From positions 3,438-67,437 of the forward strand of contig CACWVU010000009.1 in assembly GCA_902764415.1 (NCBI GenBank): DNA of 64,000 nucleotides. Reading direction: 5' to 3'. Below the pieces are notes generated by a model. It saw only the letters and a list, made by a program, of their open reading frames with translations. It was not told the DNA's origin and did not search any database. Made by a program: the position numbers and the translations under genes. Positions 50,187-63,571 of the stretch are shown here, piece by piece. Position 1 is the first letter of the stretch; each line of letters opens with the position of its first letter. The stretch comes from an uncultured bacterium. Its GTDB lineage: Bacteria; Verrucomicrobiota; Kiritimatiellia; RFP12; UBA1067.

Positions 50187-50346
50187 ATGCGCCAGTGAGC
50201 CTGAACAACACCATACGCATGTGCTCTGCCGTGCTGTCTACCATTTCCGCCGCGTCGGCGACGGATATAGGTGACATAAGGAGGTAATAGGATGAGTGCG
50301 GCATTGGTGTCGTGTACATGTAAGTCAAAAATGCTATATACACATA

Positions 50347-51966
50347 ATGGCGCAGCTTGAACATATAGAGGCGATTGAGAAGCGGCTTTGGAGCGCGGCG
50401 GATACGCTGCGGGCGAATTCCAATTTCGCCGCGAACGAGTTTTTTATGCCCGTGATGGGGCTTATCTTCCTTCGCCATGCCTACAGCCGGTATCTGGCGG
50501 TGAAGGACGAGGTGGTCAAGTCGCTGCCGTCGCGGGGCGGTAAGACGCGCGAGCCGACGAAGGAGGACTTCTCCGCGAAGGGTGCCGTGTTTCTCCGTCC
50601 GGAGGCGCAGTTCGACTATCTTGTCTCGCTGCCCGATTCCGCCAATCGTGCCGAGGCCATCATCAGCGCGATGGAGTCCATCGAGGCGGACTACGAATCG
50701 CTGAAGGGCGTTCTGCCGAAGGAGGAATACAACGAGCTGGACAACGAAATTCTCGGACAGCTCCTGCGCAAGCTGAATCCCGAAGAGCTGAAGAATATGT
50801 CGGGCGACGTGTTCGGGCGCATCTACGAATACTTCCTCACGCAGTTCGCCGGCACCAAGGCGCATGACGGCGGCGAGTTCTTCACGCCCATTTCGCTCGT
50901 CTCATTCATCGCCAAGGTGCTAGAGACGGATTCGGGAATCGTCCTCGATCCGGCCTGCGGGTCGGGCGGCATGTTCGTGCAGTCCGCCCGCGTCGTCGAA
51001 CGCCAGAACGAGAACCCCACGGAGAAGCTGACGTTCTTCGGGATGGAGAAGAACGCGACGACGATCCGTCTGGCGAAGATGAACCTGGCCGTTCACGGTC
51101 TGGAAGGCGACATCAAAAAGGCAATCACCTATTACGAAGACCCGCACGAACTGATTGGCAAGGTCGATTTCGTGATGGCGAATCCGCCGTTCAACGTGGA
51201 TGAAATCGACGCGGACAAGATCAAGAACGATCCCCGTCTTCCGTTCGGGCTTCCGAGCGTGAACGACAAAGGCAAGGTCTCGAACGGCAATTACGTCTGG
51301 ATCAGCTACTTCTACAGCTACCTGAACGAACATGGCCGCGCCGGATTCGTGATGGCGGCTGGCGCGGAGTCTGCGGGACGCGGCGACGCGCTCGTCCGGC
51401 GGAAGCTGATCGAGACGGGGGACGTCGATGTGATGGTCTCCATCCGCTCGAACTTCTTCTACACGCGGACGGTCCCGTGCGTCCTGTGGTTCCTGAATCG
51501 TGCGAAGAAGACGAAGGAGCAGAAGAATATCGTGCTGATGATTGACGCGCGGAACGTCTATCGCAAGGTGACGCGCAAGATCAACGACTTCTCGCCCGAG
51601 CAGGAACAGAACCTCTTGGCCATCGTGTGGCTATATCGCGGCGAGACGAAACGCTACAAGGAACTTTTGTCGCATTACCGAAAGAACGGAGAGGACGAGG
51701 CGGCGGACTGGCTGGAGGAACGCTTCCTAGATGGCAAGTACCGTGATGTGGAAGGGCTGGTCAAGGCCGTCACGCGAGAGGAGATCGCGGCAAACGACTG
51801 GTCGCTCACACCGGGCCGCTACGTGGGCGTAGCCGAGACGGACGACAACGATGAGGACTTCGCTGAGAAATTCGCGGCACTCCACGAGGAACTGCGCAAG
51901 CTGAACGCCGAGGCTGCAACGCTCGCCAAGAAGATCGACGCCAACTTCAAGGAGCTGATGGGATGA
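50347..51966 (+). CDS. hsdM: Type I restriction-modification system, methyltransferase subunit
   Basis: HsdM N-domain LWSAADTLRANSNFAANEFFMPVMGLIFLRH; SAM motif VLDPACGSGGMF; catalytic VMANPPFNV. Confidence 0.92.
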   Translation: MAQLEHIEAIEKRLWSAADTLRANSNFAANEFFMPVMGLIFLRHAYSRYLAVKDEVVKSLPSRGGKTREPTKEDFSAKGAVFLRPEAQFDYLVSLPDSANRAEAIISAMESIEADYESLKGVLPKEEYNELDNEILGQLLRKLNPEELKNMSGDVFGRIYEYFLTQFAGTKAHDGGEFFTPISLVSFIAKVLETDSGIVLDPACGSGGMFVQSARVVERQNENPTEKLTFFGMEKNATTIRLAKMNLAVHGLEGDIKKAITYYEDPHELIGKVDFVMANPPFNVDEIDADKIKNDPRLPFGLPSVNDKGKVSNGNYVWISYFYSYLNEHGRAGFVMAAGAESAGRGDALVRRKLIETGDVDVMVSIRSNFFYTRTVPCVLWFLNRAKKTKEQKNIVLMIDARNVYRKVTRKINDFSPEQEQNLLAIVWLYRGETKRYKELLSHYRKNGEDEAADWLEERFLDGKYRDVEGLVKAVTREEIAANDWSLTPGRYVGVAETDDNDEDFAEKFAALHEELRKLNAEAATLAKKIDANFKELMG

Positions 51967-53759
51967 GATGGACGATTGAACAGCTTAAGTCCGTTCGTGA
52001 ATCGGAGGACAAGGTCGAATTTAAACGCGGCGAGGGCGGAAACATTGCGTATGATGGCGGATCTCGAATAAAGCCAGCTGAAAGGCGGCGTTGTATTCTG
52101 GGGTATGTAATTGCTTTATGTAACGAAAACGGCGGATCTCTCGTCATTGGGATGGATGACAAGTATCCGCATTGTGTAATCGGCACTAAGCAAGCCGAGA
52201 GCGCGTTGGGGGATCTGGAAGCGCACATATACCGGGATACTGGCATTCGACCAGAGGTATATGAGCTCTTTGAGAATGAGGCTGAAAAGGAAGGTCGCGT
52301 CGTTGTGATTGATGTGCCGCCTCGTCCAATTGGCCGTGTTTATAAGTTTGAAGACGTGGCGCTAATGCGTGTGGGTGAAGAACTTAAGCCGATGTCTGAC
52401 GAATGTTATTGCCGAATTGTTCAAGAGCAGGAGCCAGACTTTTCCCAGCAGATATGCGAGGGTGTGGACATTCTTGATCTTGATGACGAAGCAATTTCCG
52501 TCATGCGTAAGAAGTATGCGGAGAAGCAACACAACCAGAAGTTCCTCACGCTTGACAAATTGCAAATCTTGACGGATCTTGACTTGGTGCGCGATGACCA
52601 TGTCACGAACGCTGCCGTCCTGCTTTTGGGGAAAGAGAAAATTATTAGGGAACGGATTCCTCAGGCTGCCGTGATGATTGAATATCGGTCTGCCGAGTCG
52701 CGTATACCATTTGACAATCGAGTGGAATACCGCAAACCGTTCTTCTTGATGATTGATGAGTTGTGGCATGACATTAATCTCCGTAATGGAGGATTCTCGG
52801 TTAAGGAGGGGCCCTATATCTTTACAGTTCCATATTTCAATGAAGAGGTTATCCGTGAGTCTATCAACAATGCGATAGCACACCGCGATTATCGCCGTCA
52901 GAGTGAGACGGTGATTAAGCTTTATCCCGAGAAGATGACGATTATCAATGCCGGAGGATTTCCAAACGGCGTGACAGTTGGAAATCTTCTGACTGTGCCC
53001 AGTACACCGCGAAATCGTCTTCTGGCGGATGTCTTGTCCAAGACTGGCGTCGTGGAACGTTCAGGCCAAGGCGTGGACAAGATTTATTACAATACACTTT
53101 CGGAAGGAAAGGAGGCGCCGGACTATTCGGGAAGTGATGACTTTAAGGTCGAACTGACGCTGTCGGCAACAATGAAGGATCGCGGATTTGCATTGTTCAT
53201 TGAGTCTGTCCAACAGACTTTGCCAGACAATCGCAAGCTTTCGGTTCTTGAGATCCTGACGTTGTCGAAAATCCGTGACGGTGTACCCTCGCCTCAACTT
53301 GATAAAGACATCCTGCACAAGTTGCTGGAGCGGAATCTGATCGAGAAACGAGGGAAGACGAGGGGGATGTCGTATATTTTGGGGCGCAGTTACTATGATT
53401 TTACAGGAGACCTTGCGGAGTATCAAAGGCGGAGTGAATGGGGGCAGGATCAAATGCTTTCGGTAATATTGCCTTTGTTTGGTAAGGTAAGAGCCGCCAA
53501 AATGGGTGATTTTGCCAAACTGCTTGAAGGTCACATGACCCGTCGCCAGATACGCGTTGGCATCCAGAAATTCGTGGATGTTGGAATTTTGGTTTCTGAA
53601 GGGACTGGTGCCGGAACGCGCTATAGCCTAAGCGAGACATACAAGGAGAGGACAAAAATATTGGATGAAGCGCTTATTATTGGATTGAAGGAGATTGCTA
53701 AAAGGGAATGGCCAGAAAAAGGCCAAGAAACAGGTGAGAAAGAGGGAGAAAAAGCCTAA
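51963..53759 (+). CDS. AlbA_2 (divergent AAA/Schlafen-like) + HATPase_c_4 domain protein with C-terminal wHTH-like region
   Basis: ESEDKVEFKRGEGG...YVIALCNENGGSLVIGMDD (AlbA_2). RESINNAIAHRDYRRQSETVIKLYPEKMTIINAGGFP...TPRNRLLADVLSKTGVVERSGQGVDKIY (HATPase_c_4). Start overlaps the hsdM stop (ATGA). Confidence 0.8.
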   Translation: MRWTIEQLKSVRESEDKVEFKRGEGGNIAYDGGSRIKPAERRRCILGYVIALCNENGGSLVIGMDDKYPHCVIGTKQAESALGDLEAHIYRDTGIRPEVYELFENEAEKEGRVVVIDVPPRPIGRVYKFEDVALMRVGEELKPMSDECYCRIVQEQEPDFSQQICEGVDILDLDDEAISVMRKKYAEKQHNQKFLTLDKLQILTDLDLVRDDHVTNAAVLLLGKEKIIRERIPQAAVMIEYRSAESRIPFDNRVEYRKPFFLMIDELWHDINLRNGGFSVKEGPYIFTVPYFNEEVIRESINNAIAHRDYRRQSETVIKLYPEKMTIINAGGFPNGVTVGNLLTVPSTPRNRLLADVLSKTGVVERSGQGVDKIYYNTLSEGKEAPDYSGSDDFKVELTLSATMKDRGFALFIESVQQTLPDNRKLSVLEILTLSKIRDGVPSPQLDKDILHKLLERNLIEKRGKTRGMSYILGRSYYDFTGDLAEYQRRSEWGQDQMLSVILPLFGKVRAAKMGDFAKLLEGHMTRRQIRVGIQKFVDVGILVSEGTGAGTRYSLSETYKERTKILDEALIIGLKEIAKREWPEKGQETGEKEGEKA

Positions 53760-53853
53760 ACCGGCCGACGTAAATGCCAATAATTGCGATTATTCGCATA
53801 AATAATTCAGTTAGAAATGTCCAAGCAATGTCCAATTTGAAGTGGTAGAAGAG

Positions 53854-55119
53854 ATGAAAATCGTAGAACGCGAGATAAATGGCAGGAAAGGATGTGACAA
53901 AAGGCATGATGTCTCTTGTCGCATGCCTCATCGTGCCTCTGGTCTAACGTCTCGCGCCCCGTGGCCGAAGGTGAAGTTGGAGGCAATCGGTAAGGTCATT
54001 ACAGGTATGACACCACCGACAAAGCATCAGGCTTACTATGGCGATGATTATTTGTTTGTAACTCCTTCGGATCTTGGTTTTGATTCGTACTTCATTTCTA
54101 AAACCGAGAGGTGTGTATCACAACAAGGGTACGAGAAGTATCGCAACCGCTTTATTCCTGCAATGTCGACGATGTACACTTGCATTGGATCGACAATCGG
54201 TAAAATAGGACTAAGTCGAGAGACGGTTTTAACAAATCAACAAATTAATTCGATCATCCCAAATGATGCACATGACGCAAGGTTTGTTTATTATTTGATG
54301 CGGTCGTTAACAAACGAGATACGTGCACTTAATGCAGGTTGTGCAGTGCCGATAATTAATAAAGGCGATTTTGAAAATATTGATGTGCCATTAGTCCCTC
54401 TCCCCGTCCAGCGGCGGATTGCCGACATTCTTTCCGCGTATGACGACTTGATCGAGAACAACCGCCGCCGCATCGCCATCCTTGAAGAGACCGCGCGCCT
54501 CTCCTACCGCAAGTGGTTCGGCGGGGCGAATACCGCCCGCACAGCCACGCTGGGGGAGATTTGCCAAGCATTTGGCGGCGGCACGCCGAAAACGACCTCT
54601 CCTGAATTCTGGGATGGTGATATTCCGTGGGTTGTCCCCACAGATATAACGCGTAACACATGCCTTGCATTACTTGATACAGAACGAAAGATCACCGCCT
54701 TGGGGTTACAGAAGTCATCAGCAAAGATGCTTCCCGCTAATGCTATTCTTATGACCAGCCGTGCTTCTGTTGGCTATTTCGGCATGGCAGATTTTCCTGT
54801 TTGCACGAATCAGGGATTCATAAGCATTGTTCCTAACAACGATTCGTGGCGGTGGTATCTGCTTTTTAATTTGATGTTGCGTGTTGAAGAAATTCGCAGC
54901 AATGCCAAGGGCTCGACATTCCCCGAAATCAGCAGAGCCAGATTCAGAAGTATGGATGTTGCTATTCCTGATGACAATGCCTTGATTGAGTTTAACAGAG
55001 CTGTTGAACCGCTTATGCAACAAGTTCGGATTCTTGCCAAGCAATCCGCCGCTCTTGCCGCCGCCCGCGACATGCTGTTGCCGAGGTTGATGAACAACAA
55101 ATTAAGAAAGGATGCATGA
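53854..55119 (+). CDS. hsdS: Type I restriction-modification system, specificity subunit
   Basis: Two target-recognition domains separated by the conserved helix LPVQRRIADILSAYDDLIENNRRRIAILEETARLSYRKWF. C-terminal conserved helix ..AARDMLLPRLMN. Start uncertain (53842 GTG, 53854 ATG or 53926 ATG). Confidence 0.88.
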   Translation: MKIVEREINGRKGCDKRHDVSCRMPHRASGLTSRAPWPKVKLEAIGKVITGMTPPTKHQAYYGDDYLFVTPSDLGFDSYFISKTERCVSQQGYEKYRNRFIPAMSTMYTCIGSTIGKIGLSRETVLTNQQINSIIPNDAHDARFVYYLMRSLTNEIRALNAGCAVPIINKGDFENIDVPLVPLPVQRRIADILSAYDDLIENNRRRIAILEETARLSYRKWFGGANTARTATLGEICQAFGGGTPKTTSPEFWDGDIPWVVPTDITRNTCLALLDTERKITALGLQKSSAKMLPANAILMTSRASVGYFGMADFPVCTNQGFISIVPNNDSWRWYLLFNLMLRVEEIRSNAKGSTFPEISRARFRSMDVAIPDDNALIEFNRAVEPLMQQVRILAKQSAALAAARDMLLPRLMNNKLRKDA

Positions 55120-55120
55120 C

Positions 55121-56530
55121 ATGGAAATTACAGTTGGTTACCTTGACGAGGAACGCGTCAAACTTTGGTCGGAATTAAATGCCGTCAAAAAAGCACTGGA
55201 CGAAGCGGTTGCAAAATTGTCGCAAACAGACAAGGCTACGGTTTCGTCCATTCAGAGCTTAGGACAGGCGCTCGAGAGTAAGATTGCAGCAGTAAAGAAG
55301 ATCGCAGATGAAAAGACGCCTGAAGATGTGCAAACGGCGAGTAGGGCGGCGCAAGAAGTTGTCAAGATCAAGAACGATGTCCAGGCACTTCAAAAGGATA
55401 CTGAAGAGCACCGTTCCCGTTTGACAGCAGCGAAAAATGCATTGAAACGAATACAGGGCATCTCGGACAATTGTGATGCTTCAAGCAAAGAAGTTGAAGG
55501 GAATAGGGTAAAGATTGCGGAAGCAACAAAATCTATTGATGCATATCTTGCACAACTTGGCGAAAGAAAAGCTGCAATAGATGATATGATGACCAAGATA
55601 TCGGCCGCGACGGCGTCAAGTGCAGAAAAATCTCAAGAAGTCGCGAATTTAAAGGCACAGGTTGGTAATGCAACGTCCGAAATATCTGCCGCGAGGCAGA
55701 AAATACAAGAATTGCAGGCCGCTTTTGACGGGTTGAAGGAAAAACAAGATGCAGTATTCAATGATTCCAAAGAGACATTGGGTAATTTGAGTTCTGAGAA
55801 TCAAAGTAGATTTGATAAGCTTTATACAACTAGTGAGAAGCAGATAAAGGAACTGGAAGAGCGCATTAATAAGCTGTTGCCTGGTGCCACTTCACTTTCC
55901 TTATCGTCAGCCTTTGAAAAACGGAAGAAAGCGGTAGAAAGAAACAAATGGTGGTGGGCAACTTTGCTTATCGCATCGGCTGGTGGAATAGTGTACTTTG
56001 GGTGGTGGTCATTATCACTAATGATGAACAATATGGCGTCTACACAGTCTGCTGGACTGCCGTTGTCAACAATCCCAATAAGAATAATGATTATTGCCGG
56101 ACTTGTTATAATTGAGGAGTTTGCGCGACGCAACTACAATGTTAGTTCGCGTCTTGCTGAAGCGTATGCGTATAAAGAGGCGATTGCGCAGTCGTATGTT
56201 GGCTTTAAGAAGGAGCTAGCAGATATTGATTTACCACCTCGCAGAGAAGGTGATATTGTAAAGTCTATTGCGGTATTAGCAGATACATTTTTACAGAAGA
56301 TTGGAGATGAACCAGGCAAGAAAGTTTTTGACAAAGAGAAACCTGCTCTTGGTGTTATGCAGGCCATATCAAAGATGAGTGGACAAGAAGATGTATCTCA
56401 AGATAATAAGGTACAGATTGTTGCAACGGCCACAACGTTCTTGTCAAAGATATCGTGGCCTATCGTTGCTATGGTGACTGTTCTGGCAATAGCAGGATGC
56501 ATAATTACATGGCTTGCGATGCGAGGGTAG
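55121..56530 (+). CDS. Coiled-coil protein (~270 aa) with a C-terminal membrane module (TM hairpin + terminal TM helix); no family recognised
   Basis: Long heptad-like, E/K/A/Q-rich N-terminal half. TM segments WWWATLLIASAGGIVYFGWWSLSLMM, IPIRIMIIAGLVIIEEF and WPIVAMVTVLAIAGCIITWLAM. AAAGGA lies 8 nt before ATG 55121 (alternative ATG at 55112 overlaps the hsdS end). Lowest-GC gene of the island by eye. Confidence 0.7.
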   Translation: MEITVGYLDEERVKLWSELNAVKKALDEAVAKLSQTDKATVSSIQSLGQALESKIAAVKKIADEKTPEDVQTASRAAQEVVKIKNDVQALQKDTEEHRSRLTAAKNALKRIQGISDNCDASSKEVEGNRVKIAEATKSIDAYLAQLGERKAAIDDMMTKISAATASSAEKSQEVANLKAQVGNATSEISAARQKIQELQAAFDGLKEKQDAVFNDSKETLGNLSSENQSRFDKLYTTSEKQIKELEERINKLLPGATSLSLSSAFEKRKKAVERNKWWWATLLIASAGGIVYFGWWSLSLMMNNMASTQSAGLPLSTIPIRIMIIAGLVIIEEFARRNYNVSSRLAEAYAYKEAIAQSYVGFKKELADIDLPPRREGDIVKSIAVLADTFLQKIGDEPGKKVFDKEKPALGVMQAISKMSGQEDVSQDNKVQIVATATTFLSKISWPIVAMVTVLAIAGCIITWLAMRG

Positions 56531-56655
56531 TTTTATCATAGCGGATAGCCTATGACCTGCCGAATCTCCATAATCAGTGCACAGCATGCGTTAGAAAGGG
56601 ATTTTAAGTCCCTTGCCGATTGTCGCCACACGGAAACGCGCAGTCTGGAGGTGTC

Positions 56656-56883
56656 ATGAGCCAGAAAATCTCCATACGTTTTTACAATGACCGCGAGGTG
56701 CGGGTGGTGTGGGACGATGCGGGTTCAAAGTGGTGGTTCTCCGTGCTGGATATCGTCGCCGCCATCAACCGTGAACCCGACTACGCCAAGACGCGAAACT
56801 ACTGGAAATGGTTGAAGGCAAAGCTGAGGCGCGAGGACAGTCAACTGGTTAGCGCCACTACCCAAAGGAGCGAACTGACATGA
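56656..56883 (+). CDS. Bro-N-like small protein (75 aa)
   Basis: GGAGG lies 4 nt upstream of ATG 56656. ISIRFYNDREVRVVWDDAGSKWWFSVLDIVAAINREPDYAKTRNYWKWLKAKL matches the N-terminal pattern of Bro-N/RhuM-type DNA-binding proteins but stops early. The stop overlaps the helicase start (ATGA). Confidence 0.6.
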   Translation: MSQKISIRFYNDREVRVVWDDAGSKWWFSVLDIVAAINREPDYAKTRNYWKWLKAKLRREDSQLVSATTQRSELT

Positions 56884-59078
56884 TAACGCGTGAACAGGCT
56901 GTGGAGATGTTGCGTCGGGGAATCGGGCGCAATGATGCCGATTTTCGCGATGGTCAGTGGGAGGCGATAGACGGTATTTTGAACCATCGGCGTCAGCTGG
57001 TCGTTCAGCGGACGGGGTGGGGCAAGAGCATGATCTATTTTCTTGCCGCGCGGTTCCTGCGCATGGAAAGGCGCGGCATGACGTTGCTGGTGTCTCCGCT
57101 CTTGGCGCTCATGCGGAACCAGATCGCAGCGGCCCAGCGCGTGGGGATTGTTTGTGACACGATCAATTCAACAAACCGCGATCAATGGCCGGAGATCGAG
57201 GCGCGTGTGATTTCGGGGGCGTGCGACTTTCTGATTGTCGCCCCGGAGCGGTTTGCCAATGAAGAGTTTTGCGTCAATGTGCTTGATCGGATCAAGAACA
57301 ACATCGGGCTTCTCGTCGTTGACGAAGCGCATTGCGTGTCCGATTGGGGACACGATTTCCGTCCCGACTACAAGAAGATATCGAATCTCCTTAAAGGGCT
57401 TCCGCCCAATATGCCTGTCTTGGCAACGACGGCCACGGCGAACATGCGGGTCGTTCGTGATGTCGAGGCACAGCTGGGAGGGCGCGTTGATGTTTCTCGC
57501 GGTAGTCTCGTCCGCAAGAGCTTGTTCCTGCAGAACATCCGTCTCCGCACGCAGGAAGAGCGTCTGGCATGGCTGGCAGAGACGCTGAAAAACAGGATAG
57601 CCGGTTCGGGCGTGGTCTACGCCCTGACGATTCGTGACGCCGAGCGGGTCGCCAGGTGGCTGCGCATGAACGGGCTTTCGGCGTATGCCTATTCGTCTGG
57701 CGCGATGCCGCCGGAAGACATGGACGCGGCATTGCGCGAAGAGCTTGAAGACTCGGAGACGTGGAAGACCGCTGCAAAAGACGAGGCGCGGAGTAATGCC
57801 TATCGCATGTTCCTGGAGGATTTGCTGCTGAAGAACAGGATCAGGGCCCTTGTGGCGACATCGGCGCTGAGCATGGGGTTCGACAAGCCCGATCTGACGT
57901 TTGTCATCCATTATCAGCGTCCGAAGTCGGTGGTGGACTACTATCAGCAAGTCGGGCGCGCGGGGCGCGGCGTCGATTTCGCGTACGGTATTCTGCTGAA
58001 TGGCGACGAGGACGACGAAATCGCCGGATACTTCATCAAGAGCGCATTCCCCAAAGAGCGGGATGTGAAGGAGATGTTGAGCGCCATTGGCGAGAGCGAC
58101 GAAGGATTGTCGATCGTTGAACTAATGGCGCGCATGAACGTGCGGCGCAGCAAGATCGAACAGGCTCTCAAGTTTGTGATGTCCGAGAACCCGTCTCCAG
58201 TCGTGAAGGTGAAGTCAAAGTATGTGGCAACGCCGTTCCTGTCGCAATACGAACTGCCGGCGGCGAACATCCAGCGTCTTACGGACATACGACATCAGGA
58301 ATTGGCGCGAATGGATGAATACGTGAAGACGGGGGATTGCCTCATGAAATTCCTCTGTTCCGAATTGGACAGCCCTGCCGACGAGCCGTCATGCCAGCGG
58401 TGTGGCAATTGCCGTCCGCAGGAGGCCTTGCCGACAGGTTGTGATACTTCTCTTGCGCAAAAGGCCGCCGAGTTTCTGAACAAGTCCGATTTGCCGATAA
58501 CGCCGCGCAGGCAATGGGCAGATGCGGCGACGGCGGCGACGGCGTTTGGGATCGCGGTGAAGAAGAGCATTCCCGCCGCGTTAATCATGGAGGAAGGGCG
58601 CGCGTTGTCCGTCTATGGCGCTGGCGGCCTTGGGCGACTTGTGCCCCAGGGGAAATACAGGACAACGCCGCCGCGCTTTGACGACCGGCTTGTCGAGGCA
58701 AGTGCCGAGCTTCTTGCGAGGTGGAGCCCTGAAAATTGGCCGGAATGGGTGACATGCGTTCCGTCGCGCAGAACGCCGACTCTTGTTCCTGATTTCGCGC
58801 GGCGTTTGGCGGCGAAATTGAGATTGCCGTTTGTCGAGTGCCTGCGCAAGGTGAAGGATACTCCGCCCCAGAAGGAAATGGAAAACTCGTCCTTCCAGCA
58901 GAACAATCTCATCGAGGCGTTCGAGGTTGTCTGTAAGCCGCCGGCAGGGGTGTGCCTGCTTGTGGACGACATGGTGGATTCAAAATGGACTTTAACAATT
59001 GCGGCGGCGATGCTGCTAAAGGCCGGAGCGGCGTCCGTGGTGCCGTTCGCGCTGGCCGATTCTTCAGGAGGAGAGTGA
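56880..59078 (+). CDS. RecQ-family SF2 helicase fused to a C-terminal ComF/ComFC-type phosphoribosyltransferase-like domain
   Basis: RTGWGKS (motif I); VVDEAHCVSDWGHDFRPDY (DEAH + RecQ motif); ATTATAN; QQVGRAGR; CQRCGNC zinc finger. C-terminal WVTCVPSRRTPTLVPDFARRLAAKLRLPF...PPQKEMENSSFQQNNLIEAFEV...VCLLVDDMVDSKWTLTIAAAMLLKAGAASVVPFALA (ComF-like PRTase). Confidence 0.85.
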   Translation: MITREQAVEMLRRGIGRNDADFRDGQWEAIDGILNHRRQLVVQRTGWGKSMIYFLAARFLRMERRGMTLLVSPLLALMRNQIAAAQRVGIVCDTINSTNRDQWPEIEARVISGACDFLIVAPERFANEEFCVNVLDRIKNNIGLLVVDEAHCVSDWGHDFRPDYKKISNLLKGLPPNMPVLATTATANMRVVRDVEAQLGGRVDVSRGSLVRKSLFLQNIRLRTQEERLAWLAETLKNRIAGSGVVYALTIRDAERVARWLRMNGLSAYAYSSGAMPPEDMDAALREELEDSETWKTAAKDEARSNAYRMFLEDLLLKNRIRALVATSALSMGFDKPDLTFVIHYQRPKSVVDYYQQVGRAGRGVDFAYGILLNGDEDDEIAGYFIKSAFPKERDVKEMLSAIGESDEGLSIVELMARMNVRRSKIEQALKFVMSENPSPVVKVKSKYVATPFLSQYELPAANIQRLTDIRHQELARMDEYVKTGDCLMKFLCSELDSPADEPSCQRCGNCRPQEALPTGCDTSLAQKAAEFLNKSDLPITPRRQWADAATAATAFGIAVKKSIPAALIMEEGRALSVYGAGGLGRLVPQGKYRTTPPRFDDRLVEASAELLARWSPENWPEWVTCVPSRRTPTLVPDFARRLAAKLRLPFVECLRKVKDTPPQKEMENSSFQQNNLIEAFEVVCKPPAGVCLLVDDMVDSKWTLTIAAAMLLKAGAASVVPFALADSSGGE

Positions 59079-59079
59079 A

Positions 59080-60399
59080 ATGACGGACATGGATTTTAGC
59101 ATTTCCGAGGACACGCAGGCGACGTTGCTGCTCTGCGGTACCTTGGGCAAGGACAATGGGTCGGCTCGTCCGCTGACTCTGCCGCAGTACAACGCCGTCG
59201 TACAGGCGCTGGTTTCTCTTGACAAGCGACCGTCCGATTTGCTGCATGAGGGTGGGCTTGCCGAGACGATTTGCTCGATGCCAGTGGAGAACGCAAGGTT
59301 GAAGGAACCGGCATCGGCAGGTCGGTTGAAAACCTTGTTGGATAGGGGTTTCGCGCTGTCGATGGCCTTGAATCGGTGGGCGCAATACGGAGTGCGTCCG
59401 ATCGGGCGCGGAGACGGTCTCTATCCGGCACGAATGAAACTGTATCTGAAGGGCAAGGCCCCTGCCATTTTGTATTACGCGGGGAGCGATCAGCTTTTGA
59501 CTGGCGGCGGCATGGCGTTTGTCGGGTCGCGGAACATTTCTGACGAGGCGACGGAGGCAATCCGGCGTGTCGTTCGCGAGTGCCTCGATGCCAACATGCC
59601 CATTGTGTCTGGAGGGGCAAGAGGAGCCGACCAAACTTCCATGCGTACGGCGTTTGAGTGCGGGGGAAGCGTCATCGCGGCATTGCCCGGAGATTTGCTG
59701 AAGACATGCCTTGCGCATGAGAACCGTGAAGCCATTGGTGCAGGAAGGGTTTTGTTGTTTTCCGCTGTCGATCCAGACGAGCGTTTCACGCCGATCAATG
59801 CGATGGATCGCAACAAGTATATTTATGCAATGGCAGATTATGCGTTCGTGGCGCAGTCTGATACGAAGGGCGGAACGTGGACTGGCGCCGTGGAAGAACT
59901 GAAGCGCCCCGAACACCATCCTGTGTTTGTCTATATGGGACGTTCACGCGTCGAGGGGTGTGCGAAGCTTGTCGCGCAGGGGGGCGTTGCATGGACGCCG
60001 TCTGACACTTTGCAGCCAATGCTTGAAAAGGGTGCGGCAACTGCAAATAAACCTACCAAAGCATTACAACCGTCGTTGTTTGATTTTGCGGCGACGCGTA
60101 CGGATGAAGAACATAAAGAGGATATGGCGCTACGACAAGTCTCCGAGCCGAGGGTCAGACAGAGAAGACGTTGCGGAAAAGCATTGATCCTGACGGGTAT
60201 TTTTCGCCAAAGGGATGGAAGATGTTGCTTGATAAGGCCTGTGCCGAAGGGAAATTGGCGCGAACGGAAAAGCCCAAGAAGCGCGGGAAGCCAGACGTCC
60301 TCTATGTGGGGCTCCAAAACGAGGGATGAACATGAGCGTCTATACCGAAGACAATCTGGTGCAGAAGACGACTGCGGAGTATCTGGTCAATTCGCTTGA
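59080..60399 (+). CDS. DprA/Smf-like (SLOG-fold) protein; 3' end probably frameshifted (plausible C-terminus in the +2 frame ends at 60329)
   Basis: GGAGG RBS inside the recQ 3' end. Rossmann core GGGMAFVGSRNISDEATEAI...MPIVSGGARGADQTSM...VIAALPGDL...MDRNKYIYAMADYAFVAQSDTKGGTWTGAVE. After about 60110, frame 0 becomes R/C/W-rich nonsense and overlaps hsdR. The +2 frame reads ...GQTEKTLRKSIDPDGYFSPKGWKMLLDKACAEGKLARTEKPKKRGKPDVLYVGLQNEG*. Confidence 0.7.
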   Translation: MTDMDFSISEDTQATLLLCGTLGKDNGSARPLTLPQYNAVVQALVSLDKRPSDLLHEGGLAETICSMPVENARLKEPASAGRLKTLLDRGFALSMALNRWAQYGVRPIGRGDGLYPARMKLYLKGKAPAILYYAGSDQLLTGGGMAFVGSRNISDEATEAIRRVVRECLDANMPIVSGGARGADQTSMRTAFECGGSVIAALPGDLLKTCLAHENREAIGAGRVLLFSAVDPDERFTPINAMDRNKYIYAMADYAFVAQSDTKGGTWTGAVEELKRPEHHPVFVYMGRSRVEGCAKLVAQGGVAWTPSDTLQPMLEKGAATANKPTKALQPSLFDFAATRTDEEHKEDMALRQVSEPRVRQRRRCGKALILTGIFRQRDGRCCLIRPVPKGNWRERKSPRSAGSQTSSMWGSKTRDEHERLYRRQSGAEDDCGVSGQFA

Positions 60400-63300
60400 C
60401 TGGAACGAGAGCGTCTATGCCATGCAGGAGGTCTTCGGCACGGCGGGGACGCTGGGGCGCGTTGACGAGGGCGAGGTGCTGCTTGTGCGCTATCTCCGAC
60501 CTGCGCTCGAAAAACTGAATCCAGGTCTGCCCGCCGCTGCATACGACGATGCCGTCCGCATCCTTGCGGACACTTCCGTCTCGATGGGACTTGACGCCAT
60601 CAACCGCGAGAAGTACAAGCTTCTTCTCGACGGCATCCCCGTTCGCTACACGGCGGCGGACGGCACGAAGAAAAAGGCGGCGTTGCGCGTCTTCGACTTC
60701 GACGATCCGGACAAGAATCATTTCCTCTGCGTACGCGAACTGTGGTTGCGCGGTTCGCTCGGCCGTCGCCGCCGTGCGGATGTCGTCGGGTTCGTGAACG
60801 GCGTGCCGCTCGTCTTCATGGAGCTGAAGAACGTCACGAAGGACATCTCCATTGCCTACCGCGACAACTTCTGCGATTACCGCAAGGTCGTACCGCAGAT
60901 ATTCCACTTCAACGCGTTCGTGATTCTCGCAAACGGCATCGATGCGAAGATCGGTACGCACTCCGCCAAGTTCAAGTTCTTCCATGCCTGGAAGCGTCTT
61001 TCCGAGGATGAACCGGGTGCGGTGGACATGGAGACGTTGTTGAAGGGGTCATGTTCCAAGGCGAATCTGCTCGACCTCTTCGAGAATTTCATCGTCTATG
61101 ACGAGTCGGCGGGAGCCGTGGCGAAGATCCTCGCCCGCAACCACCAGTTCCTTGGAGTGAACCGCGCGGTAGAGGCGGTGCGCAACCGCAAGGGCACGGA
61201 TGGCAAGCTGGGCGTGTTCTGGCACACGCAGGGTTCGGGCAAGAGCTATTCGATGGTCTATTTCACGCGCAAGGTGCACCGCAAGCTCGGCGGGAACTTC
61301 ACGTTCCTGATCCTGACCGATCGCGATGAGCTGGATACTCAGATCTACAAGACGTTCGCGGGATGCGGAGTTGTCGACAACGACAAGGACGAATGCCGCG
61401 CCGCGAGCGGGGCGCATCTGAAAGCGCTCTTGGGTCAGCACAAGAGCCATGTGTTCTCGCTCATCCAGAAGTTCAACGAGGAGGTGCGCCCCGGCGAGGC
61501 CTACACCACGCGCGACGACGTGATCGTCATCTCCGACGAGGCACATCGGACGCAATACGGGCTTCTGGCGCTCAACATGCGCAACGCCTTGCCGAACGCG
61601 GGGTATATCGGGTTCACGGGAACGCCGCTCTTCAAGGGGGACGAGCTGACGAAGCAGGTGTTCGGGGACTACGTGTCCAGATACGATTTCCAGCGGGCGG
61701 TGGACGACGGGGCGACGGTACCGCTCTACTATGACGCGCGCGGGGAGAAGCTCAACGTCGCCACGCAGGACATCAACGAGAAGATTGCCGAGAAACTGGC
61801 GGCATTTGAGGCGGAGGACGTGGATGTCGCCGAGAAGCTGGAGTCTGAACTGAAGCGCGACTACCACGTCATTACGGCGAAAAAACGTCTTGATCAGATC
61901 GCCCGCGATTTCGTGCGGCACTATTCCGCGTCGTGGGAGAACGGCAAGGCGATGTTCGTGTGCATCGACAAGATCACATGCGTGAAGATGTACGACCTCA
62001 TCTCAAAGTATTGGGACGAGGAAACGAGGTCGCTGGAGGCGAAGCTCTACGCCACGGAGGACGAGCAGGAAGAGCAATTCCTCCGGCGACAGGTGGCGTG
62101 GATGACGGAGACGGTCAAGGCCGTCATTGTCAGCGAAGAACAGAACGAGGACGAGAAGTTCGCCAAGTGGGGGCTGGACATCCTGCCGCACCGCAGGGTG
62201 ATGAAGGAAGGGATGAGTCTGCCCGAGTCGTTCAAGTCAAAGCTGGAGTATGTGGGGCGAGACCGCATGGATGTTGACGAGGCCTTCAAGGCGGATGAGC
62301 ATCCGTTCCGCATCGCCATCGTTTGCGCCATGTGGCTGACGGGGTTCGACGTGCCGTCCTTGGGTACGCTCTATCTCGACAAGCCGCTCAAGGCGCACAC
62401 GCTCATGCAGGCCATTGCCCGCGCGAACCGCGTGAACGAGGGCAAGAACAACGGCCTGATCGTCGATTACTGCGGCATTCTCAAGAACCTGCGTCAGGCA
62501 TTGGCGACCTTTGCCGGGGGAACGGGCGTGTTGGGCACGGAAGGCTGCGAGACGGATCCCGTGAAACCGGAGGAGGACTTGCTGGCGGAACTCGACGAGG
62601 CGATCCGATTGGTACGGGAATGGCTGGAAACGCATGGCGCTTCGCTGACGGCGATCATGGAATCGGACGGTTTTGCCAAGAACGCGGCCATCAACGCTGC
62701 GAAGGAGGCAGCGAACGAGAACGACGAGACACGCAAGCGCTTCGAGGTGTTGTGCCGTGCGTGCTTCGCCAAGTTCAAGGCGTGCATCACATTCGCGGGC
62801 GTTAACCGCTATCGCGGCGAATACGCGGCGATTCGCGTCATCTACATGAGCCTTCAGCAGGGGAAGGCAGATGCCGACATCTCGGACATCATGCGTGAAC
62901 TGCAGAAAATTGTGGATGAGGCTATTGTGCCGCAGGAAGCCGTTGGCGACGAACGTGCACCATACGACATCAGCCGCATCGACTTCGAGCGGTTGAGACA
63001 GGAATTCGCCACGTCCAAGTCGAAGCGTACCGCCGTACAGTCGATGAAGGCGACGGTTGAGGCGAAACTTGCCGCGCTCTTGGCGCGCAATCCCCTGCGC
63101 ACGGATTTCCAGCGGCGATACGAGGAGATTGTCGCCGCCTACAACAGCGAGAAGGACCGGCAGACGATTGAGCAGACGTTCGAGGCGCTCTTGAAGTTCA
63201 TCGCCGAGATGTCGGAAGAGGAGGAGCGTGCGGTCCGGGTAGGGCTCGATGAAGAAACGCTGGCGATCTACGACCTCTTGAAGAAACCGGCGTTGTCAAA

Positions 63301-63571
63301 GGCGGATACGGGAAAGATCAAGGCCGTAGCCAAGAACCTATTGGAGAAGCTGAAGGCGGAGAAGCTTGCCGTCAGCCACTGGCGCGACAAGGAAAGTACG
63401 CGAGACGGCGTGAAGAAGCAGATTCGCGATTTTCTTTTTTCCGACGCGACTGGCTTGCCCGCCGCCTATACGGATACGGAAATCGATGTAAAGACGAATG
63501 TCGTCTTTCGGCATATCTACGAGGTCTATCCCGTTTTGCCGTCGCCGTACTACGGACGCAAGAGCGCATAG
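60332..63571 (+). CDS. hsdR: Type I restriction enzyme, endonuclease/translocase subunit
   Basis: Nuclease region RADVVGFVNGVPLVFMELKN; motor motifs WHTQGSGKS, ISDEAHRTQYG, GFTGTPLF. GAGGG lies 6 nt before ATG 60332 (alternative ATG at 60326). Confidence 0.93.
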   Translation: MSVYTEDNLVQKTTAEYLVNSLDWNESVYAMQEVFGTAGTLGRVDEGEVLLVRYLRPALEKLNPGLPAAAYDDAVRILADTSVSMGLDAINREKYKLLLDGIPVRYTAADGTKKKAALRVFDFDDPDKNHFLCVRELWLRGSLGRRRRADVVGFVNGVPLVFMELKNVTKDISIAYRDNFCDYRKVVPQIFHFNAFVILANGIDAKIGTHSAKFKFFHAWKRLSEDEPGAVDMETLLKGSCSKANLLDLFENFIVYDESAGAVAKILARNHQFLGVNRAVEAVRNRKGTDGKLGVFWHTQGSGKSYSMVYFTRKVHRKLGGNFTFLILTDRDELDTQIYKTFAGCGVVDNDKDECRAASGAHLKALLGQHKSHVFSLIQKFNEEVRPGEAYTTRDDVIVISDEAHRTQYGLLALNMRNALPNAGYIGFTGTPLFKGDELTKQVFGDYVSRYDFQRAVDDGATVPLYYDARGEKLNVATQDINEKIAEKLAAFEAEDVDVAEKLESELKRDYHVITAKKRLDQIARDFVRHYSASWENGKAMFVCIDKITCVKMYDLISKYWDEETRSLEAKLYATEDEQEEQFLRRQVAWMTETVKAVIVSEEQNEDEKFAKWGLDILPHRRVMKEGMSLPESFKSKLEYVGRDRMDVDEAFKADEHPFRIAIVCAMWLTGFDVPSLGTLYLDKPLKAHTLMQAIARANRVNEGKNNGLIVDYCGILKNLRQALATFAGGTGVLGTEGCETDPVKPEEDLLAELDEAIRLVREWLETHGASLTAIMESDGFAKNAAINAAKEAANENDETRKRFEVLCRACFAKFKACITFAGVNRYRGEYAAIRVIYMSLQQGKADADISDIMRELQKIVDEAIVPQEAVGDERAPYDISRIDFERLRQEFATSKSKRTAVQSMKATVEAKLAALLARNPLRTDFQRRYEEIVAAYNSEKDRQTIEQTFEALLKFIAEMSEEEERAVRVGLDEETLAIYDLLKKPALSKADTGKIKAVAKNLLEKLKAEKLAVSHWRDKESTRDGVKKQIRDFLFSDATGLPAAYTDTEIDVKTNVVFRHIYEVYPVLPSPYYGRKSA

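Follow-up and report, generated by a model that had tools for sequence, protein, structure and literature searches.

The 64,000-nucleotide stretch analysed here (the window; contig CACWVU010000009.1, from an uncultured bacterium of the Kiritimatiellia) contains a type I restriction-modification (R-M) island, in which the gene directly downstream of hsdS encodes a 469-residue membrane protein, hereafter the target. Our reading, to which we give a probability of about one half, is that the target acts autonomously as a single-gene passenger of defence loci, is horizontally mobile and is a candidate inner-membrane effector from a large unnamed superfamily. Judged by sequence comparison, it is a credible stand-alone phage-defence candidate, and it is an unnamed candidate of a kind already known, the defence genes embedded in R-M and bacteriophage exclusion (BREX) operons. 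Nesting in such operons is by now an accepted lead to new anti-phage systems, and little is understood of defences that act at the membrane. The target family is large, has neither name nor structure, carries a sharply conserved juxtamembrane motif and recurs in one and the same slot of several unrelated modification-based systems; if defence were shown, it would be a common new class of membrane effector and maybe a general sensor of anti-restriction attack. The initial annotation, made from the letters of the window, had proposed among other ideas an independent gene of the abortive-infection (Abi) type within the R-M operon. The solo-passenger part of that proposal is borne out by the genomic contexts and the patchy distribution, while Abi-type activity stays a candidate function.

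The features of the target are listed below. Residues are numbered as in the translation P0001, which is counted from 55112 and in which the true methionine is residue 4; TM stands for transmembrane and AF2 for AlphaFold2.

55121 to 56530, plus strand: target gene, 469 residues; start placed from the conserved N-terminus of 69 homologues and a Shine-Dalgarno-like motif
55121 to 55873, plus strand: N-terminal cytoplasmic helical, heptad-rich domain (N-domain), residues 4-254; AF2 secondary structure, heptad analysis and alignment
55865 to 56341, plus strand: superfamily core module, residues 252-410; profile search, column conservation and AF2
55955 to 56026, plus strand: TM1, residues 282-305, WATLLIASAGGIVYFGWWSLSLMM; sequence, inside the modelled helix H12-64
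56072 to 56125, plus strand: TM2, residues 321-338, IPIRIMIIAGLVIIEEFA; Kyte-Doolittle peak 2.17 and conservation
56126 to 56218, plus strand: juxtamembrane helix following TM2, residues 339-369, RRNYNVSSRLAEAYAYKEAIAQSYVGFKKEL; conservation, and AF2 helix H72-125 continuous with TM2
56447 to 56521, plus strand: C-terminal TM3, residues 446-470; Kyte-Doolittle peak 2.48

A hidden Markov model (HMM) of the C-terminal module (A2), derived from 8 sequences that each come from an independent locus, was run against a set of 1.84 billion representative proteins. Counted as clusters at 50% identity, its matches numbered 1,884 at E <= 1e-3, 537 at E <= 1e-10 and 34 at E <= 1e-30. On this profile evidence the module defines a large superfamily, unnamed in the libraries searched, for which we coin the name 'LLPGATS - 2TM - RLxExYAYKEA'. 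The core module is made of a pre-membrane helix (LLPGATS..L..AF..RK), TM1, TM2, a helix with the pattern R..RLxExYAYKEA..G.K and an L...L..(D/E)PG element. Its core residues are 81-99% conserved over 229 members; they comprise I252, LLPGATS (255-261), L264, F268, R271, K272, W282 and R324 on the N side and R340, R347, L348, E350, Y352, A353, Y354, K355, E356, G364, K366, L389, L394, P401 and G402 on the C side, with E350, Y352, K355 and G364 reaching 97-99%. The target possesses the pre-TM helix, the TM hairpin and the post-TM helix by which the superfamily is defined, with a variable helical N-domain ahead of them. The sequence preceding the core ranges from ~110 to ~370 residues among superfamily members, and TM3, present in the target subfamily, occurs in only ~40-45% of the superfamily (occupancy 0.44-0.48; 93 of 230 members match through this region). 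Closer to the target, a word-indexed search with residues 262-472 retrieved 69 homologues, nearly all of ~460 residues, with identities down to 33%.

Scans of Pfam, NCBIfam and PADLOC with the full protein, the close family and ten distant members returned no family beyond coiled-coil noise, and the sequence matches outside the family were all to generic coiled coil (SMC, Mce, MCPsignal and the ZorA tail). No model of PADLOC v2.0.0, which includes the PDC/HEC candidates, the TM effectors of CBASS and Pycsar and ZorA, matched over the defining domain; the partial matches, for the target and likewise for distant members, were coiled-coil stretches of ZorA, JetC, LmuB, DruC and PbeC. The best of them was ZorA1 (E 2.7e-8). 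Like the target, ZorA of Zorya is a membrane-anchored defence protein with a long coiled coil, but the match is limited to the coiled-coil tail (positions 421-651 of 699 in the profile), outside the MotA-like channel domain, and the target differs in its reversed domain order and in having no ZorB partner. Nothing recurrent was found when 8 C-terminal modules were compared with Pfam at E <= 10, a profile search of PDB sequences gave no match, and a protein search with the superfamily profile yielded few matches and no informative names. In PHROGs, apart from coiled-coil noise with the full protein, one weak relative of unassigned function, phrog_34659, matched the core at E 1.3e-6. Foldseek comparison of the full-length and C-terminal models with PDB and BFVD gave nothing at E <= 1e-3; the top rows (apoA-IV, Vipp1, PPE41 and BAR domains) are generic helical hairpins, and the Vipp1/PspA rows were given no weight. 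In the literature, we found no named system with the architecture of the target.

About 27 distinct contexts of the gene were examined, four of which (L016, L065, L067 and L070) share one R-M lineage. They are given below, first for the close family and then for distant members.

L032 and L061: hsdS, then target, as in the window
L018: hsdS, target, hsdR
L016, L065, L067 and L070: hsdM, small gene, target, hsdS, with hsdR further on
L014: BREX, target 15 nucleotides (nt) after brxL
L033: BREX, with the order unknown gene, target, pglZ, brxL
L017: three C5-methyltransferase genes and one HNH gene as neighbours
L035 and L068: CoiA-like nuclease and ResIII helicase as neighbours
L007 to L010: DUF4747, TIR/SEFIR protein and DUF2971 as neighbours; R-M absent
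L011: integrase island with PIN_12 and DUF87
L013, L064 and L072: no recognisable neighbour
L047 (distant): hsdM, hsdS, target
L044 (distant): adjoining an N6-methyltransferase
L043 (distant): directly after a 1,736-residue type ISP enzyme
L041:4835-6151 (distant): adjoining an Eco57I/MmeI-like enzyme; an in-frame TAG splits the homologue into open reading frames (ORFs) of 336 and 92 residues
L042 (distant): adjoining an integrase
L048 (distant): adjoining an AAA_15/21 ATPase
L036:8001-10775 (distant): directly upstream of a gene for PycTM, the Pycsar effector, and of a 293-residue gene without Pfam match
L038 (distant): adjoining Fic
L039, L045 and L046 (distant): no recognisable neighbour
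Further distant members: on Xanthomonas and Agrobacterium plasmids

About 14 of the ~27 contexts touch R-M (type I, ISP or IIG) or BREX. The gene is embedded in an R-M operon and co-oriented with it in the window, L016, L018, L032, L047, L061, L065, L067 and L070 (type I) and in L043 (ISP), and embedded and co-oriented in BREX in L014 and L033. In these operons the copies are tightly packed, with gaps of 1-70 nt, across four kinds of system and with distant members included. At the scale of genomes, the module was found in 10 of 401 sampled genomes of the phylum and was absent from all 3 other species of the genus and all 17 genomes of the family that were searched. The island itself recurs, identical, in many metagenomes, always after infB and a DUF4838-GDPD gene. 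The contexts fit a mobile passenger of defence loci that prefers modification-based systems. It is a published principle that most genes embedded in type I R-M and BREX serve defence (10.1101/2024.01.29.577857).

A few loci show details of their own. In L033 (L033:7144-15384), the gene before the target codes for 709 residues, has no Pfam match and overlaps the target start by 20 nt. L036 has a ParE toxin gene nearby, and its islet lies between argJ and the topoisomerase VI genes. The broken homologue of L041 may be a pseudogene or an assembly error.

The initial annotation had described about 270 residues of uninterrupted heptads, a Trp-flanked TM hairpin and a terminal TM helix. All three TM segments are present in the sequence and in the Kyte-Doolittle profile, with the hairpin at W280-M305 and I321-F337 and the terminal helix at about 446-470; the heptad-rich helices do extend over ~250 residues, but they do not form a single unbroken coiled coil. 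AF2 places three long helices in the N-domain (8-67, 71-170 and 177-255), which are interrupted where the conserved KTP and SQE sites lie. The 3.5-residue hydrophobic periodicity of this domain is significant, being reached by 4 of 1,000 shuffles, and a strong heptad register was seen in only ~35% of its 28-residue windows. Its conserved motifs are YLDEERVKLW, KTPEDVQTA.RAAQE and QEVANLKAQ. With an identity among homologues of 29-37%, against 46-55% for the C-terminal half, the N-domain evolves faster. The length of the helical domain is plastic among members: the 571-residue P0045 of L011 (L011:8001-9716) carries in its coiled-coil domain an insertion of ~110 residues that looks like an internal duplication of a helical repeat, and the 365-residue P0065 has deletions in the helical domain.

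In the membrane module, TM1 is Trp-flanked, follows a basic stretch (RKKAVERNK) and is less hydrophobic on the Kyte-Doolittle scale than TM2 and TM3. A loop of 16 residues leads to TM2, in which R324 is 91% conserved and EE335-336 are invariant within the close family. A cytoplasmic stretch of ~105 residues separates TM2 from TM3, and the positive-inside rule points to a topology with the N-terminus in and the C-terminus out. The segment 'RLAEAYAYKEAIAQSYVGFKKEL', which had been taken for amphipathic, has a low hydrophobic moment (0.09-0.27); in the light of the model it is better described as a signature helix, being the most conserved motif of the superfamily and a modelled continuation of the TM2 helix. 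The AF2 model of the core module, computed from 63 sequences, has a predicted local distance difference test (pLDDT) of 76.6, rising to ~89 over the hairpin, and a predicted template-modelling score (pTM) of 0.60. It consists of two helices of ~53 residues, H12-64 and H72-125 in module numbering, joined by a loop of 7 residues. From this secondary structure, the only source of the geometry, we infer a long hairpin in which TM1 and TM2 would form the tip and the two conserved helices would pair in the cytoplasmic half.

The position of the gene agrees with what had been noted by eye. Its reading frame, directly downstream of hsdS, is open over 55112/55121-56530 on the plus strand, as seen from the ORF list and the translation. 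The close homologues all begin at the 'ME[IV]T' methionine of the alignment, and because they share this N-terminus we place the start at ATG 55121; the Shine-Dalgarno-like motif AAGAAAGG lies ahead of it at 55105-55111. The start had been said to abut or overlap the hsdS stop, and the hsdS TGA (55117-55119) ends 1 nt before the ATG, while the alternative ATG at 55112 would give an overlap of 8 nt with the hsdS stop. The impression that the gene has the lowest G+C content (GC) of the island also held when computed: 0.436 for the target, against 0.478 for hsdS, 0.479 for the AlbA_2 gene between hsdM and hsdS, 0.582 for psyrT, 0.584 for hsdM and 0.59 for hsdR. The target is 26 points below the core genes, which stand at ~0.70 (infB, 0.695). 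A scan for promoters and terminators around the gene gave nothing decisive.

As a single-gene passenger, the target would have a putative role as a back-up effector of the abortive-infection type. The fast-evolving N-terminal helical domain would sense either a cue from the phage or that the modification-based system next to it has failed or is inhibited. The signal would then be relayed through the conserved juxtamembrane stalk, in which LLPGATS..F..RK is paired with RLxExYAYKEA, to oligomerised TM hairpins that would perturb the inner membrane through an ion leak or depolarisation, and this perturbation would lead to the arrest of the infected cell. The faster divergence of the N-domain is what would be expected of a sensor-plus-effector protein, although the pattern would be no different if coiled coils were under relaxed constraint.

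Several points weigh against this reading. Toxicity, membrane action and a phage phenotype are all putative, for the target as for every other member. The sample of contexts is small, partly non-independent and has no matched background control, and in about one fifth of them (L013, L039, L045, L046 and L072) no recognisable defence gene was found. The AF2 models describe monomers, and their confidence is moderate (pLDDT 66.6 at full length and 76.6 for the module). Finally, the polar residues that are conserved belong to the juxtamembrane helices on the cytoplasmic side, outside the bilayer, so that a pore is not the sole reading and membrane perturbation is inferred.

A serious rival, by analogy with known systems, is that the target guards modification-based immunity as an anti-anti-restriction device of the Ronin or PrrC type, a model we consider tentative and on balance unlikely. 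HsdMS or the BREX methyltransferase complex would keep the target inactive, and a membrane toxin would be released when phage anti-restriction proteins such as Ocr and ArdA disable the complex. The tight, co-oriented packing (gaps of 1-70 nt) inside or next to R-M or BREX in about half of the contexts and in four kinds of system speaks for it, and so do the experimental precedents RonA and PrrC (10.1101/2023.04.06.535777). RonA, from the Ronin system of E. coli ECOR55, is a membrane toxin that HsdMS restrains and that anti-restriction proteins set free (10.1101/2023.04.06.535777), with a proposed growth arrest via the inner membrane when such proteins hit HsdMS. RonA and the target are both membrane proteins encoded tightly beside hsdS and hsdM, and RonA is also BREX-linked. 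However, RonA has 61 residues and one TM, is always linked to hsdMS and is experimentally supported, whereas the target, compared here by description, has 469 residues, a large helical domain and 3 TM and often occurs without R-M. PrrC and RloC share with the target the slot between hsd genes and the concept of an Abi back-up guarded by a restriction enzyme, but they are soluble ABC-ATPase/nuclease proteins, whereas the target is membrane-embedded and has neither an ATPase nor a nuclease domain according to Pfam, NCBIfam and PADLOC.

Against an obligate guard stands the copy in the TIR/DUF4747 island, which is 69% identical overall and 65% in the N-domain and has no R-M nearby; because this copy, N-domain included, sits in a locus without R-M, we favour autonomy. 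Other copies lie on plasmids or small islets without R-M, and HsdMS, type ISP and BREX are structurally dissimilar, which makes one common binding interface unlikely. Extended to the whole superfamily, the model would describe a general class of membrane guards that watch over the integrity of type I, ISP and IIG R-M as well as BREX and, once phage anti-restriction factors have disabled these, make the energetics of the membrane collapse, an extension that we hold to be doubtful. If true, RonA and PrrC would have in this class a large-protein counterpart, widespread yet so far unannotated.

Somewhat less probable still is a non-suicidal membrane role, in which the target would be a tether or scaffold placing restriction or BREX complexes at the inner membrane, at the site of phage DNA entry, or would serve entry exclusion or the maintenance of mobile elements. 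The target has a scaffold-like look, with its long helical domain in the cytoplasm and a hairpin as anchor; its conserved residues are found on the cytoplasmic, juxtamembrane side and do not line a pore, and the linkage to DNA-modification systems is frequent. Yet several contexts are without R-M or BREX, and the interaction that this role calls for is putative. Nor did tblastn detect relatives in phage records and viral contigs, the sole viral link being the weak phrog_34659 match.

It had also been suggested that the target is the membrane output, of the SLATT type, of the adjacent helicase-phosphoribosyltransferase/DprA(SLOG) module. The 2-TM effector domains called SLATT (Pfam SLATT_1-6, DUF4231) were reportedly described by Burroughs et al. 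in 2015. In favour of this idea, the target and the module are encoded on one strand, the target 350 bp upstream, and a helix comes after the 2-TM hairpin of the target; it shares with SLATT proteins the two-helix membrane hairpin, the cytoplasmic flanking helices and the standing of a conflict-system candidate. HMM and profile-profile comparisons nevertheless gave no similarity. No Pfam SLATT model matched any of 8 diverse C-terminal modules at E <= 10, the full protein at E <= 0.01 or ten distant members. Among 301 genomes of the phylum, the model PF18181 picks out 12 genuine SLATT_1 proteins; the genome to which the window belongs, searched in six frames with this model, gave no match. Compared with these 12 SLATT_1 domains by hhalign, a comparison that covered SLATT_1 alone among the SLATT families, the 8-sequence A2 profile reached a probability of 1.1% and a 229-sequence profile 4.8%. 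A SLATT protein from BFVD gave, against the target model, E 0.12 and a template-modelling score of 0.18. By these comparisons the target is a protein with no recognisable SLATT domain.

The link to the module fared no better. PADLOC names it PsyrTA (also RqlHI), a known self-contained toxin-antitoxin defence pair of two genes, and when co-occurrence with the RecQ-phosphoribosyltransferase and DprA-like genes was checked, PsyrTA was present in the window and in 0 of ~26 other contexts. An association with SMODS/SLOG enzymes, which would be expected of a SLATT protein, is seen in the window only, where the DprA-like PsyrA is the neighbour; the other contexts that were examined have no such gene. 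In the sister island L032 the target is retained although PsyrTA is absent. The comparative data already contradict the target being the output of PsyrTA, and a SLATT-like output of this module is very improbable.

Equally hard to sustain is the idea that the target is a common membrane protein with a coiled coil, of an envelope, chemoreceptor-like or housekeeping kind, and sits in the island by chance: the generic coiled-coil nature of all matches outside the family would suit it, but the absence from related species and genomes noted above, the low GC and the fact that homologues always lie in variable islets, plasmids or defence operons are against it.

The other genes of the island are the following.

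50296 to 51966, plus strand: hsdM (Pfam N6_Mtase, HsdM_N)
Between hsdM and hsdS: a gene with SLFN_AlbA_2 and HATPase_c_4 (the AlbA_2 gene)
53842 to 55119, plus strand: hsdS, type I specificity subunit, directly upstream of the target (Pfam Methylase_S, E 6.6e-43)
56656 to 56883, plus strand: 75-residue ORF between the target and PsyrT
56880 to 59078, plus strand: PsyrT (PADLOC 878 bits, 1.1e-264)
59080 to 60399, plus strand: PsyrA (PADLOC 305 bits, 2.9e-91)
60326 to 63571, plus strand: hsdR (Pfam HSDR_N, SWI2_SNF2, T1R_D3-like, T1RH-like_C)

The island of the window thus holds three separate cargo modules, namely the AlbA_2 gene, the target and PsyrTA, and no single composite system. Of the 292 positions of PDC-S04, the 75-residue ORF matches only the 70 at the N-terminus (E 1.1e-32), and of the 274 positions of phrog_15286 it matches 3-67; in the ATGA at 56880 its stop and the start of PsyrT overlap. 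The ORF resembles either a remnant left by truncation or an N-domain that stands alone, and its sequence may have been cut by the arrival of PsyrTA. A downstream small ORF was considered as a partner of the target and rejected: the 73-residue ORF that follows a 70%-identical homologue is unrelated to the 75-residue ORF of the window. The target shares its discovery logic with the PDC/HEC 'guilt-by-embedding' candidates of PADLOC, being likewise nested in type I R-M or BREX (10.1101/2024.01.29.577857); unlike them, it matches none of the PADLOC v2.0.0 models, while the neighbouring ORF matches the PDC-S04 N-terminus.

The sister type I R-M island L032, on a contig of RUG14463, was compared with positions 50296-63571 of the window. 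hsdM is 94% and hsdR 93% identical, hsdS only 60% and the target 80%. In L032 the place of the AlbA_2 gene, between hsdM and hsdS, is taken by a 251-residue Zn-ribbon/23S_rRNA_IVP-like gene, and an AlbA_2-like gene is found downstream of the target, with PsyrTA absent. In the window the psyrA frame extends 74 nt into hsdR (60326-60399), and a 25-residue PsyrA 'remnant' in L032 was rejected, its match falling over the hsdR 5' end and probably being hsdR DNA read in the psyrA frame. Set side by side, the two islands show a swapping of cargo and of the specificity subunit within one R-M lineage.

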